Shown here piece by piece: positions 33,001-39,000 of a stretch of 64,000 bases of DNA. Within the stretch, counting starts at the first letter, position 1. Every line of letters starts with the position of its first letter. Made by a program: the position numbers. The stretch comes from Acholeplasmataceae bacterium (GTDB lineage Bacteria; Bacillota_I; Bacilli_A; Acholeplasmatales; Acholeplasmataceae): contig OY775910.1 of NCBI GenBank assembly GCA_963675245.1, forward strand, positions 1,344,001 to 1,408,000, read 5' to 3'.

Positions 33001-36000
33001 CTAATCTTCCACAAGTTACCGCATGTAGTGCTGCTACAAATTCGCTTGGTGAAGGTTATCGATACATTAAAGATGGTTATTTGGATGTCGTGATGTCTGG
33101 TGGATCAGAATCACCAATCAATGAAATTGGTGTCGGTGGATTTGCGAGTCTTCGTGCACTAGAACCATCAAATGATCCAACACGTGCAAGCCGTCCATTT
33201 GATTTAACGCGTAATGGATTTGTGATTGCAGAAGGTGCTGGTATTTTCATCTTAGAATCATATACACACGCTAAAAAACGTGGTGCGAAAATTCTAGCAG
33301 AAATCGTTGGCTATGGAACAACAGCTGATGCATTTCATATGACCGCACCAGATGAAGAAGCAAATGGTATCACAAGGGCTTTACAAGATGCCTTAAAAGA
33401 TGCTAACATAGAACCTGAAGAAGTTGGCTACATTAATGCACACGGTACGTCAACAACATTAAACGATAAATTGGAAACTTTGGGGATAAAAAGAGCATTT
33501 GGTAAGCATGCTTATGATTTAAACATAAGCAGTACTAAATCGATGACTGGTCATGCACTAGGTGCGTCTGGTGCTATTGAATCGGTTTCCGTGATCAAAG
33601 CATTAGAAACATCAATGATACCACCAACGATTAATTATGAAACCCCTGATCCTGATTGTGATCTAAACTACACTGTTAATAAAGCGGTTAAGAGAGATAT
33701 GACTTACGCAATGAACGTTAATGTTGGATTTGGTGGACAAAATGCGGTGGTCATATTTAAACGAGGAGAAGATGTATGACAAGAAAAGAAATAGAAGCAA
33801 TCATACCACATAGAGATCCGTTTTTATTACTTGATGAAATCGTTGATTTTGAATCAATGAAACATGGAACTGGTATTAAACATGTCAAGGTTGATGAAGA
33901 CTACTTTAGAGGTCATTTTCCTGAAAAACCTGTGATGCCAGGTGTATTAATTGTCGAAGCACTTGCTCAAACTGGTGCGGTCGTGATTTTATCGAATCCA
34001 GATTTTAAAGGAAAAATTGCTTATTTTACAGGTTTAAAGAGTGTGAAATGGCGTAAAAGTGTCTTTCCAGGCGATACGTTAGAGTTAAATGTCGAAATTA
34101 CTAAAGTACGTGGTTCATTTGGGTTTGGTTCAGGTAGAGCATACGTAGGTGAAGATTTAGTTTGTGAAGCTGAGCTTAGTTTTGCTATTAACTAATGTTT
34201 ACATTATTAGAATTTGATGATGTTGACTCAACGTCATCAATATTAAAAGAACACTATAGCTCATTTCCACATTTTACAGTTATTCGTACAAATTATCAAA
34301 AATTTGGCCGTGGTCAATTTGATCGTGTTTGGGATGCTGAAGCTGGCAAAAACGTATTAATGTCTTTACTTTTAAAAGATATTCATATCAATACGATTAA
34401 CAACATTAAAAACCAAACGGTTGCTGTTTTAATGCATGTTCTGAAAACATATGGTATTAAAGCGACATTTAAAGCACCTAATGATTTATACGTGGGTCAT
34501 GAGAAAATTTGTGGTATTTTGATTGAAACAAAAGCCAATCATAATCAATTAGATTATGCCGTTATTGGTATTGGATTAAATGTCAATCAAAAAAAATTTG
34601 GTAATTATAAGGCAACCTCAATGTCAAATATTTTGAATAAAGTATTGGATTTGAAAGTCGTATTTTATGATATATTTATCGGACTTGAAAAAACATTTAA
34701 AGAGGATTAAAAATGACTAAAAAAACACAATCGTTACTTATTGTATTTACACTTTATGCGTTAGGTGCTGTCTTAGCAGCATTCACTTTCTTCATGTTAC
34801 CGTTTAGTACGGTAATATCACTTTTGATTGCTGATGTTGTTTACACGTTATTCATTTATGTGTTCAGTCTAATCTTGAAGAATGCAAGTCTATATGACCC
34901 TTACTGGAGTGTTATACCACCTGTATTATTGATATTTGTCGCAGTACAAGTCGGTCAACCTGTGTCAATGGGTGTCATTTTCATGTTATTTGGATTATCA
35001 TTCTGGTCAATCAGATTAACGTATAACTGGATAAAGCATTGGACTGATTTTACGTATTTGGATTGGCGTTATAAAAACTTTCAAGAGGCTAATCCTAAGT
35101 TATATTGGTTATCAAATTTATTTGCGATTCAACTTACACCAACATTGATTGTATTTGCACAAATCGCACTTGGTGTTTATGTAATTGAAGCAAATCCGGC
35201 ATTAAACCTTTTAACGGTTATCGGGACGTTGATGATGATTGTTGCTGCTGTGATTCAATTTATTGCTGATGCACAAATGGATGCTTTCAAAGAAGCAAAT
35301 CAAGGCACAAAGGCATGTATTGATGATGGATTGTGGCGGTACTCAAGACATCCTAACTATTTAGGTGAAGTCACTGTTTGGTGGGGATTATATTTAATCT
35401 ATTATTCAGTTGAAGGCTTTAATCCTTGGATGATATCACCACTCATTATGACGGCATTATTCCTGTTTATTAGTATTCCGATGATGGAAAAGAAAATATT
35501 GAAAACCAGACCTGAATATAAAGCGTATCAAGATCAAGTTTCCATGTTCTTTTTCTGGCCAAGAAAACAAGTCGAAGAGCAAATGGAAGAAACAGATTGA
35601 CACTTTCGAATTATTTGCTATAATAGACGAAGGGAATGACTGTCTCCCTTAGCGAAAGCTAAAACCGCAAAAGCGCTGATGACATCTACAACAATTTTTG
35701 TTGTAGATTTTTTTATAGGAGAATGAATATGTTACTATCTATTGCTTTAATCATCTTAATCAGCCTAAGTCTGGCAACCATTTTTGAAAAGTTAAAATTG
35801 CCAGGTATTTTAGGGATGTTACTATCAGGTGTTCTATTAGGTCCATTTGTGTTTAACCTCATAGATCCAGCGATTTTAGGCATTTCAGGAGATTTAAGGG
35901 AGATTGCTTTAATTGTGATATTGATTAGGGCAGGTCTATCACTTGATTTAAAGGATTTAAGAGAAGTAGGAAGACCTGCGATTTTCTTATCGTTTTTGCC

Positions 36001-39000
36001 TGCGACGATTGAAATATTGGCGATTACGTTTATCGCACCACTCTTTTTTGATATTTCTTATTTGACGGCTATGACAATGGGAGCTATTGTAGCAGCTGTA
36101 TCGCCAGCTATTGTCGTACCAAGAATGATCAAATTAATTGAGAAGAAATACGGGAAAGATCATAAAGTACCACAGATGATTTTGGCAGGTGCGTCGATTG
36201 ATGACATATATGCGATTATTATATTCACCGTAGGTATCAATTTAAGTAAAGGTCAAGATTTTAGTTTTCTAACGATATTAAATATACCGTTATCCATTTT
36301 ATTAGGTGCTTTATTAGGTATTAGTGTTGGTTTGGGTTTGGTTTGGTTCTTTAAGACATTTCATTTACGGGATACTGTAAAAGTGATGTTAATATTTGCA
36401 TTCGGCTTTCTATTTATTACGCTTGAGGATCTAGTTCAACCATGGATTGCTGTATCAGGACTACTTGCTGTGATGGCAATTGCAATGACGATCAATCAAA
36501 GACATAATCTTTTATCTAATCGCCTTATAAAGAAGTTTGAAAAGATTTGGGTTACAGCAGAAATTATGCTATTTGTTTTAGTCGGTGCCTTAGTTGACAT
36601 CACGGTATTAGTTGATGCAGGGTTGTTCTCTGTACTATTAATAGTGGTAGCTTTAATGTTTAGAATGTTTGCTGCATATTTATCAACGATAAAAACGAAT
36701 CTTACAGGTAAAGAAAAATGGTTTACGGTATTATCATATACACCTAAAGCGACAGTTCAAGCAGCGATTGGTGCGATACCTCTAGCTCTAGGATTACCTC
36801 ATGGTGATTTGATTTTACTTGTTTCGGTACTTGCTATTGTCATTACTGCGCCATTTGGTGCGATTATGATGGATAGGACCTATAAACACTTACTTGTGCA
36901 AGAAATAGATGAGAATGAGGCAATTTAAGGTAAAATAGTAGTTAGATAGCCTTAAGGCTATTTGGGAAAAGATAAAAATAATGTTAAAATAGTGTCAACA
37001 TAGATTTAAAAAGTTAGGCTTGAATTGAAAAGCATACAAGGAGAAATTTATGAAACGCAACAAGTTTGTCGTCATTGGATCAGGAAGATTAGGATCGAAT
37101 ATCGCGACTAAAATGTCAGAACAAGGTGAAGACGTTATTATTATTGATGCGACGGATGATTCTTTTAGAAAATTACAAGAATCCTTTTCAGGTTATCAAG
37201 TTGTTGGTGATGCAACAGATTTATCTGTTTTAGATAATGCGTTTATTAAGCAAGCTAAAGCAACCGTCATCACGACAGATAACGATAATGTCAATATCTT
37301 CTTAGCACATGTTTGTTATTACGTTTATAATGTACCAAAAATTGTTGTTCGCTTAGCAGATACAGATAAAGGTAAATTATTAGAAGGTACGAATATTAAA
37401 GCTATCTATCCGTTTAATTTATCATTATCAGAATTTGATGATTTAAATGAAAGCGAGGAAGAACTATGAAAATCGTTCTAACAGGTGGTAAACACGAGTC
37501 AGATTATATTATTTCATTGCTAAAGAAAAAGCATAATCTCATCGTGATTAACCAAGATCCTTCATTTGCTGAATATATTTCATCACATAATGATATTGAT
37601 GTCTTTCCAGGAGACCCTACAAAGGCGTATACACTTTCAGATGCAGATGCTAAAAATGCGGATGTTTTCTTAGCATTATCAGATAATGATACGGATAATT
37701 ATATCGCTTGTATTACTGCAAAAAGATTATTTAATATTAAACGAACGGTTGCGAAAGTTAAAAATCCTAAAAACGTTGAACTCTTTAAACGTTTGGGTGT
37801 GGACTCTGTAATCAGTTCTACGTATTTACTTGCACAGACCATTTTAAATGAATCTTCAATTGAAAATATCATTAAGACATTATCTATAGAAGATGAAAAG
37901 ATTGTGATGCTTGAATTAGGTATTGAAGCTGATTATCAACTCGTTGATAAAAAGATTATGGATATTCAATTTCCAAAACGCGTTAATATTAGTTGTATTT
38001 TCCGTGATCCTCATGTCATTATTCCTGATGGATCTACTGTCATTCAACCAGATGATAAGTTAATTCTTGTAACAACACCAGATCATCAAGATGAACTGGT
38101 CGACTTCGTACAACGGAAAAGGTAAATAATGGATAAAAAGATTACATCAGGATATCCACTTATTTTCAATTATCTTGGGATATTCGCTATTTTAATTGGT
38201 ATTATTAATGCCTTGCCATTGGCGGTTATTTTATTCTATCCGGATGAAGTAACCTATTTATGGCACTTTTTAGCGCCATCTTTAATGACGATTTTTATTG
38301 GACTAGTCATCATATTAATCTTTAAAGGTAGAGAAAAAGGACGTTTAGAGCGTTCTCAAGATGCAATCTTGGTTGTCTCTATTTGGATTATGGGGATTTT
38401 GACATCCGCAGTACCTTTTATGTTAACTGGTACATATAATTTTACACAAAGTGTATTTGAAACAACGTCAGGATATTCTACGACTGGTTTAACGGTCGTT
38501 GATGTGACACAAACAGCACATATATTCTTATTCTTTAGAAGTATGTTACAACTTGTTGGTGGGGTTGGGTTAGTCTTGGTATTAACATCAGCTATTTCTG
38601 ATAAGTTTGGTATGAGACTTTATAGTGCTGAAGGACATAGTGATAAACTGGTTCCTAACTTAATTAAATCTGGACGTATCATCATGTCAATATATTTAGG
38701 GTATATTGCAATAGGTGCAATATTTCTTGTGATATTTGGTATGAATGTCTTTGATGCAATAAACCATTCCATTTGTGCAGTCGCAACCGGTGGTTTCTCA
38801 ACACAAGCAGGTTCTATTGGCGCTTATAATAGTGTTGGTATTGAAACTACGATTATTGTCTTAATGATTTTAGGTGGTACCAATTTCTTCGTCCACTTGA
38901 TGTTATTAAGAGGTAAGCTAAAGAATGTCTTTGGACATGTTGAAATCAAATTATTAGGATTATTACTGATTATCTTTATCCCTCTCATGACCATTAACTT

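Follow-up and report, generated by a model that had tools for sequence, protein, structure and literature searches.

A fluoride riboswitch upstream of an NHA2-like antiporter in a genome without Fluc or CLC: a candidate replacement for Fluc

An antiporter locus behind a fluoride riboswitch

We analysed a window of 64,000 nucleotides (contig OY775910.1, positions 1,344,001 to 1,408,000) from an Acholeplasmataceae genome that consists of one contig and is 99.96% complete. The window carries a transporter gene behind a leader in which promoter, fluoride riboswitch aptamer and intrinsic terminator follow one another closely (Table 1). The −35 box of the promoter overlaps the stop codon of an upstream DUF1295 gene, and transcription probably starts at the position given in Table 1. 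The aptamer matches RF01734 over the full model but stays just below the gathering score of 34 (E 1.7e-6), likely because of the bulged C in the pseudoknot strand; it is the single match in the whole genome (E 1e-7), and the cut-off is passed by 60 of 141 genomes of the order. An extra hairpin, typical of the clade, lies between P1 and P2. Across 44 homologues, P1, P2 and the pseudoknot show compensatory changes, with 90% of cells paired (97% in the pseudoknot) and both-sided change in 3 of 5 pseudoknot pairs, above shuffles and slid partners. Our RNA model (R1) misses a short form of the aptamer (16 bits in G337) and misassigns two of six P1 pairs.

The overlap of the terminator with the 3′ pseudoknot strand suggests an ON switch. 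A scripted criterion recovered the same terminator layout in 73 of 75 leaders and a narrower one in 22 of 75, both counted without a shuffled control. Thus, the survey's finding of a sub-cut-off fluoride riboswitch with a terminator before the antiporter holds at this locus, now with the promoter and the overlapping terminator located.

Table 1. Features of the antiporter locus (window coordinates)
Feature	Position	Strand	Description
Promoter, sigma-70/sigma-A type	35597..35624	+	TTGACA-16-TATAAT with extended TG; 12/12 consensus match
Fluoride riboswitch aptamer, RF01734	35623..35695	+	33.5 bits
Predicted transcription start	near 35631		
Aptamer P1	35632-35635/35645-35648		
Aptamer pseudoknot	35638-35643/35682-35686		one bulged C
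Intrinsic terminator	35684..35715	+	11-bp stem and U-run; would compete with pseudoknot strand 35682-35686
Shine-Dalgarno AGGAG	35717..35721	+	7 nt 5′ of ATG 35729
NHA2/SLC9B-like (animal-NHA-like) CPA2 transporter	35723..36928	+	401 aa, about 13 helices; PF00999
trkA-trkA-trkH potassium uptake genes	37050..39616	+	121 nt 3′ of antiporter

Given the Shine-Dalgarno spacing, translation probably begins at the second ATG (399 aa); residue numbers below follow the 401-aa frame. The protein has a CPA domain and an NhaA fold nearest NHA2: among solved structures its closest relatives are NHA2 of human and bison (E 1e-33), and NHA2 also ranked first when the AF2 model (pLDDT 94) was searched with Foldseek, in agreement with the relationship already proposed in the survey. 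Alignment to 7b4l places the DD motif at D160 and D161 and the clade-specific Glu and Arg of animal-NHA-like CPA2 proteins (E215 and R432, as described in PMC6181914 and PMC8850199) at E97 and R314. Together with S127, K342 and T344 these are the key residues, and all are invariant or nearly so: E97, S127, R314, K342 and T344 are shared by all 210 homologues, D160 is found in 208 of them and D161 in 206, and a separate motif count found DD in 120 of 120. One riboswitch-bearing clade of three genomes has Asn in place of the second Asp (dN/dS about 0.07, one pair), a substitution that we count toward anion carriage. When 77 riboswitch-bearing copies were compared with 29 riboswitch-free ones, no column conserved at 85% or more separated them. 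A fluoride-specific site is thus not visible in the sequence, and the search for fluoride-specific residues by this comparison was abandoned. From the Glu-Arg pair only, the predicted activity is electroneutral Na+(Li+)/H+ exchange, as measured for NHA2 (PMC8850199). The protein has neither the CRCB domain of Fluc (PF02537) nor a CLC domain with the GNNLI/GMGLI, GREGT/V and GEVTP motifs of CLC-F.

No terminator was found between the antiporter and the first trkA, and transcripts possibly read through into the trk genes. A trkA gene comes next at 16 of 106 antiporter loci, all in three genera of the locus's own family, and a conserved trk operon was discarded as part of the cassette on this count. 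Since the neighbours of the antiporter are not conserved, the cassette appears to act alone.

Distribution of the riboswitch-antiporter pair and of known exporters

The riboswitch lies immediately 5′ of the antiporter in 61 of the 72 order genomes that bear the orthologue (141 genomes in all) and upstream of it in 54 of 77 homologue-bearing genomes of a phylum sample; in this phylum the antiporter is the riboswitch's usual target, as the survey had claimed for genomes that lack both known exporters, and it is the sole target in most genomes. Similar figures come from one family, f14 (19/24 loci), and from metagenome and viral loci (62/85, not dereplicated). The four named copies from Clostridia and Fusobacteriota are all riboswitch-linked, one of them via a CBS gene. 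For comparison, a review reports riboswitch association of about 15% (Fluc) and 30% (CLC-F) (PMC11139923). The riboswitch is found in the most basal branch of the protein tree and at scattered places over it, and three phyla retain aptamer, pseudoknot and terminator with covariation. The riboswitch is missing from 29 of 106 antiporter copies, which are still under purifying selection. Outside the phylum, the one chromosome-sized record has neither Fluc nor CLC; the three remaining records are secondary replicons, and two of these have chloride-type CLCs. A further homologue search yielded nothing beyond near-copies. The nearest Atlas structure cluster of the antiporter is mostly Spirochaetota, which we take as a lead only.

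In the complete source genome, Fluc gave no match at E<=1 and CLC only a 9.9-bit fragment below cut-off, as the survey had stated; the controls of these searches scored in 11 and in 13 of 14 genomes. Does the antiporter then stand in for these exporters, as was also claimed? The order counts on which that claim had leaned cannot say, since the order lacks Fluc and CLC-F whether the antiporter is present or not: Fluc exceeded the cut-off in 0 of 141 genomes, and 69 of the 141 have neither antiporter nor exporter. Four Fluc matches fell below cut-off, one of them (30.5 bits, with a stop) in an antiporter-bearing genome (G043). Exporter absence is a lineage trait here, and we rejected order-level co-occurrence as a replacement test for want of contrast.

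The claim does find support in f14, where the antiporter occurs in 23 and Fluc in 21 of 64 genomes and no genome carries both, against 7.5 expected (Fisher p 1e-5; median p 0.006 with one genome per genus). A non-fluoride CLC paralogue, used as control, co-occurs freely (p 0.57). On an rpoB tree of 29 genomes, the antiporter and Fluc labels are scattered and form no clusters. Tests that control more strictly for phylogeny were not significant, namely an underpowered sign test on independent pairs (median p 0.125) and a permutation within genera (p 0.17). Only 1 of 25 Fluc genomes has any antiporter homologue, a 33%-identical copy without riboswitch, and Fluc is nearby at 0 of 85 metagenome and viral antiporter loci. 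In f14, 0 of 14 Fluc loci carry the riboswitch, so that a constitutive Fluc could make a fluoride-only gene dispensable whether or not that gene is an exporter; 17 of the 64 genomes have none of antiporter, Fluc and CLC-F. Mutual exclusion with Fluc, as expected of an exporter class, was thus seen in one family. The phylum sample showed no exclusion (a homologue is present in 4 of 12 genomes with an exporter, compared with 77 of all 300; one search apiece left G199 and G159 without a score), and we set it aside as a test, exporters being too few (12/300). In-place gene swaps behind one riboswitch were sought in the mixed genera g157 and g68 and not found, the flanks being different.

CLC-F behaves differently. 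Of seven genomes in which a CLC-F-type gene is intact, three also have the antiporter, the two coexist in G242, G290, G364 and L234, and in L234 riboswitch, CLC-F and antiporter form one operon; CLC-F is nearby at 1 of the 85 metagenome and viral loci. A review lists a C. difficile operon of riboswitch, CLC and an antiporter that may belong to this family (PMC11477304). The suggestion that the antiporter replaces CLC as well is not supported for CLC-F: the larger samples agree in direction with the earlier ones on the riboswitch link and on Fluc, but disagree on CLC-F. None of the 22 CLCs of the order is a CLC-F, which removes an earlier caveat about antiporter genomes with CLCs.

Possible routes of fluoride defence

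What does the antiporter do under fluoride stress? We think that it probably serves as an inducible transporter for fluoride defence, one that takes over from Fluc by bringing cytoplasmic fluoride down, whether by carrying F− or by acidifying cation/H+ exchange. Binding of fluoride and Mg would stabilise the pseudoknot and block the terminator, the transporter would be made, and cytoplasmic fluoride would fall. As the gene occurs mostly in bacteria without Fluc, it may be an unrecognised route of fluoride disposal. The single likeliest mechanism, which we propose tentatively, is that the antiporter carries fluoride itself: F− would leave hydrogen-bonded to a protonated aspartate of the DD site with incoming Na+ in exchange, this Na+/HF exchange being powered by the sodium gradient and the membrane potential. 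The genome's F-type c subunit carries a Na+-type motif, and an ordinary electroneutral Na+/H+ exchanger would on that account be expected to drive H+ out and raise fluoride trapping. Anion carriage is favoured by the reported H+/Cl− cotransport of Drosophila Nha1 (PMC9174904, PMC9644288) and by the outward cavity of NHA2, described as lacking the usual negative surface (PMC8850199). The intact NHA2-type cation site argues against it; CLC-F, by contrast, has diagnostic changes. Bacterial members of the NHA2/SLC9B clade could, equally tentatively, be a third bacterial fluoride exporter family that moves F− through an NhaA fold.

Slightly less likely, and still a replacement for Fluc, is a cation/H+ exchanger that admits H+ for K+ or Na+, so that the pH gradient falls and fluoride exits through the lipid as HF, untouched by the protein. 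Such an exchanger would keep its cation site and would account for the Fluc exclusion; yeast without FEX is reported to resist fluoride through intracellular acidification and HF excretion (PMC9683101), and the downstream trk genes, which no terminator separates from the antiporter at this locus or in 16 related genomes, would suit recapture of K+. However, the trk link is confined to three genera, NHA2 is described as having no K+ activity (PMC8850199), the direction of a Na+ exchanger would be the wrong one if Na+ is pumped out, as we infer, and acidification would oppose a co-transcribed CLC-F. That last arrangement fits pH repair, the published reading (PMC11139923), in which an ordinary Na+/H+ antiporter with its intact cation site takes Na+ in and H+ out after HF entry: CLC-F imports one proton per fluoride, and the operons of L234 and C. 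difficile would pair it with an accessory. The riboswitch-free Fluc loci and the many genomes that manage without antiporter, Fluc and CLC-F also fit; where Fluc is constitutive, the gene would be lost for the sole reason that fluoride stress does not occur any more. Yet an accessory should accompany exporters, which the 85 loci speak against, and the antiporter is the sole target in most genomes. By weak-acid equilibrium, moreover, the proton load without an exporter would be bounded, and H+ removal would sustain fluoride accumulation. We consider both pH repair and this account of the gene's loss unlikely. It is improbable that the link reflects regulatory history or serves some other ion, a general salt or pH antiporter having captured the riboswitch, and that the Fluc exclusion is the chance of one family. 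Purifying selection on the riboswitch-free copies and the non-significant strict tests fit this last explanation; the covariation maintained over three phyla and the place of the riboswitch in the protein tree argue against it.

Relation to known systems

Bacteria have only two known kinds of fluoride exporter, and both are missing, according to a 2024 review, from groups that include Tenericutes, Spirochetes and Fusobacteria; the antiporter family occurs in Tenericutes and Fusobacteria. It is thus one testable candidate for the exporter gap, and it challenges the standing explanation of the riboswitch's second commonest target class, Na+/H+ antiporters (PMC11139923). The riboswitch-antiporter link is already published. 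In the open literature we found no paper that assigns riboswitch-linked antiporters to SLC9B or tests them for fluoride, and neither the subfamily assignment nor the Fluc exclusion, though either may be in print elsewhere. If the antiporter is in fact a fluoride-defence transporter, then either a cation/proton antiporter fold transports an anion or cells possess a dedicated acidification defence, and one would have to ask whether human NHA2 handles fluoride. A third exporter family would close the gap left in Tenericutes and Fusobacteria, and probably in Spirochaetes as well, and the handling of fluoride or halides would be ancient in a family whose members include human NHA1 and NHA2.

The locus resembles the RF01734 (crcB motif) regulon in its aptamer, pseudoknot and predicted terminator-based ON switch, and differs by the extra P1-P2 hairpin, one CPA2 subfamily as sole target and no known exporter in the genome. 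With mammalian NHA2/SLC9B2 (animal-NHA-like CPA2, PMC6181914) the protein shares the fold (TM-score 0.82), the DD motif, the Glu-Arg pair and the Lys/Thr of the TM11 break; it is about 28% identical, has no N-terminal extension, is predicted to be fluoride-controlled and has Tyr339 in place of Trp456, with E235 and E280 conserved in bacteria. Drosophila Nha1 also belongs to SLC9B; one oocyte study, known through reviews, reports that it transports a halide together with H+, and the likeness is by description. Fluc (CrcB), of unrelated fold, shares the riboswitch association and is nearly mutually exclusive with the antiporter in genomes; Fluc is an established F− channel, whereas the antiporter is a candidate. 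Fluc and CLC-F themselves occur together in about 3% of genomes, according to the 2024 review. The CLC-F (EriC-F) F−/H+ antiporters, too, are transporters that carry an annotation for a different ion and were singled out by the riboswitch, and they can share a genome or an operon with the antiporter; they bear diagnostic substitutions relative to chloride CLCs, whereas we saw none in the antiporter relative to NHA2.

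Riboswitch-controlled leader and NHA2-like antiporter

The leader preceding the antiporter has the layout of an ON switch, because the terminator overlaps the 3′ pseudoknot strand of a fluoride riboswitch that is the sole match genome-wide. When 44 distinct aptamers of homologous loci are aligned, 97% of the pseudoknot cells are paired and three of the five pseudoknot pairs carry both-sided changes; an extra, clade-typical hairpin covaries too. Thus, the survey's finding of a sub-cut-off riboswitch with a terminator at this site is borne out. A fatty-acid synthesis cluster upstream (28222–34710; acc, fabH, fabK, fabD, fabG, fabF, fabZ-like and birA-like genes, by eye) is unrelated to the pair.

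Features of the antiporter locus (window positions)
Feature	Position	Strand	Remark
Fluoride riboswitch RF01734	35623-35695	+	full-length match, 33.5 bits (cut-off 34)
Promoter, perfect match	3′ end 35624	+	sigma-70/sigma-A type
Terminator	35684-35715	+	three bases common with 3′ pseudoknot strand
Antiporter	35723-36928	+	401 aa

The protein has a PF00999 domain, and NHA2 is its closest solved relative by sequence and by fold, in line with its earlier assignment as SLC9B2/NHA2-like. Its close homologues are labelled Acholeplasmataceae. A structure search also returned, in its second row, a cluster of Na_H_Exchanger-Usp fusions, mostly from Cyanobacteriota, that resembles the fold. E97, D160, D161, R314, K342 and T344 align with NHA2 residues described in passages of PMC8850199, and the Glu that defines animal-NHA-like CPA2 proteins in part of PMC6181914 is matched as well. 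Among 210 homologues, E97, S127, R314, K342 and T344 are invariant, and D160 and D161 are kept in 208 and 206. With these residues intact, electroneutral cation/H+ exchange is predicted.

The source genome, one contig at 99.96% completeness, yielded neither Fluc nor CLC in genome-wide searches, as the survey had reported, and it encodes one other CPA antiporter.

Distribution of the pairing

In an order sample of 141 genomes, the riboswitch occurs in 65, and 72 have an antiporter orthologue (at least 38% identity, longer than 100 aa), which the riboswitch precedes by 28–86 nt in 61. A homologue is present in 77 of 300 phylum genomes and riboswitch-linked in 54, two with a longer gap. The pairing recurs at 62 of 85 metagenome and viral loci (the best 80 of 576 metagenome matches and 5 viral loci, near-duplicates kept), or 60 of the 81 with sufficient upstream DNA, and in all four full-length named copies retrieved (of five records) from Clostridia and Fusobacteriota. 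In the phylum the antiporter is the usual target of the riboswitch, as the survey proposed for genomes of the class that lack both known exporters. Riboswitch-free copies (29/106) are real, since positive controls were detected in the searches concerned. The riboswitch label requires 21 changes on a midpoint-rooted tree of 105 proteins and is present in its deepest branch, which suits an old link that may have been lost repeatedly. Neighbouring genes vary freely, except for trkA in 16 loci, all from the source genome's own family.

Several loci depart from this layout. A CBS-domain gene separates riboswitch and antiporter in Peptoclostridium acidaminophilum (L216:2317-4140), and a methyltransferase-like gene does so at L197 (G158). 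At L178 and L179 (G023, G044) a riboswitch-free copy lies 33 nt after a chromate-transporter-like gene, by eye. Copies at L187, L190, L143, L210 and L324 are frameshifted, stopped or remnant; four degraded copies are still behind a riboswitch (G149, G361, G374, G428), and L209, L171 and L172 retain a riboswitch with no antiporter trace. Two small genomes (G247, G224; L131, L132) carry both elements; their antiporter reads through if TGA encodes Trp, and in the protein tree it falls within the sequences of the order; transfer is possible. Most of 342 plasmid records, chiefly from Escherichia and Klebsiella, carry the C-terminal half of a homologue (~50% identity), which adjoins rmtB1 in the one record inspected (L219:3019-3567). 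A 2.63-Mb record labelled plasmid (L215, NZ_CP154629.1) has SRP RNA and tRNA genes and is chromosome-like.

Co-occurrence with Fluc and CLC-F

Does the antiporter stand in for the known exporters? The order sample gives no contrast: no Fluc scored above cut-off in 141 genomes, the CLC-F signature (from section 11 of PMC11139923) is absent from all 22 CLCs, and 69 genomes have neither antiporter nor exporter. Among the 300 phylum genomes, seven have Fluc and five a CLC-F-type gene (one near-signature); a homologue occurs in 4 of these 12 versus 77/300 overall, so that no exclusion is visible.

Only one family (f14) contains many Flucs, and we used every genome of it, 64 in number, that was returned at 90% completeness. 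The antiporter is found in 23, Fluc in 21 and intact CLC-F in three; of the antiporter copies, two are interrupted, by two stops and by a single stop, and a third is truncated where its contig ends. Antiporter and Fluc never overlap, against 7.5 genomes expected (Fisher p 1e-5), and antiporter and CLC-F overlap in none. With one genome per genus the median p for Fluc was 0.006, and within-genus permutation gave 0.17. A non-fluoride CLC paralogue accompanies the antiporter in five genomes and Fluc in five. For an rpoB tree we selected 30 genomes to cover the genera, one of which proved to have no rpoB; over the remaining 29 the labels clustered no more than shuffles, with a tip Fisher p of 0.0035. 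Among independent pairs none varied the same way, about four were opposite and about four did not differ, a number of pairs too small for significance (median p 0.125). The riboswitch precedes none of 14 Fluc loci and all three CLC-F loci, one broken. A cobalamin riboswitch downstream of Fluc at seven of the 14 (L331, L332, L333, L336, L339, L340, L346) probably belongs to the next gene.

When the samples are pooled, only one genome among the 25 with Fluc also encodes a homologue, a copy of 33% identity without riboswitch, and no Fluc lies in the flanks of the 85 metagenome and viral loci. Three of seven CLC-F genomes also have a homologue. Thus, the replacement proposed by the survey is partly supported: exclusion with Fluc is strong in the one family able to show it, but exclusion with CLC-F fails. 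That riboswitch and antiporter form a fluoride-defence cassette is well supported, and the antiporter is a good candidate to take the place of Fluc.

Candidate mechanisms and known systems

What would the antiporter do? Whether it exports fluoride directly, exports it indirectly or repairs pH, one would expect it to be missing beside a constitutive Fluc; the exclusion thus shows that it has to do with fluoride, and not how it acts. We tentatively consider that it may carry fluoride itself, exchanging incoming Na+ for outgoing H+ and F−, a process that the Na+ gradient and the membrane potential would both drive. The conserved NHA2-type ion site is the main evidence against this. Hints towards direct export come from the NHA2 cavity, described in part of PMC8850199 as lacking the usual negative surface, and from Drosophila Nha1, reported to be an H+/Cl− cotransporter in passages of two reviews (PMC9174904, PMC9644288). 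A further hint, a single event, is Asn at position 161, the second ion-site Asp, in three related genomes (G035, G100, G047; L074, L214, L076); these copies retain the riboswitch and an open frame, and in the one pair compared dN was 0.04 versus dS 0.56, pointing to purifying selection.

Entry of fluoride as HF, and its build-up with the pH gradient, are established (passages of PMC11139923). Alternatively, the antiporter might let H+ in, upon which HF would leave, a somewhat doubtful course that part of PMC9683101 parallels with acidification and HF exit in adapted yeast. That the antiporter expels H+ after HF entry, merely repairing pH, seems unlikely. The F-type c subunit of the source genome (C1:417224-417523, −) carries a Na+-type motif, and the V/A-type K subunit (C1:1286338-1286781, +) lacks it; with the F-type motif, intracellular Na+ is probably low. 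In that case 1:1 exchange of Na+ for H+ would drive H+ out and mend pH while keeping fluoride trapped. We infer that such exchange would be useful beside an exporter and of little use alone, and that a protective gene acting alone should lower fluoride. Some other role is improbable.

In the literature searched, with subscription papers mostly outside its scope, we saw no publication in which the SLC9B clade is named, the exclusion described or fluoride transport put to the test. That fluoride riboswitches are linked to Na+/H+ antiporters has been published, with pH homeostasis as the interpretation, in passages of PMC11139923; according to the same review, Tenericutes, Spirochetes and Fusobacteria tend to be without exporters. 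We found the antiporter family in Tenericutes and Fusobacteria, and for one homologue the closest structure cluster in the Atlas, a lead, is mostly Spirochaetota. One of the 85 loci has riboswitch, CLC-F and antiporter in a row; part of PMC11477304 describes, with an antiporter whose family may differ, a comparable riboswitch-CLC-antiporter arrangement at CD0656-7 of C. difficile.
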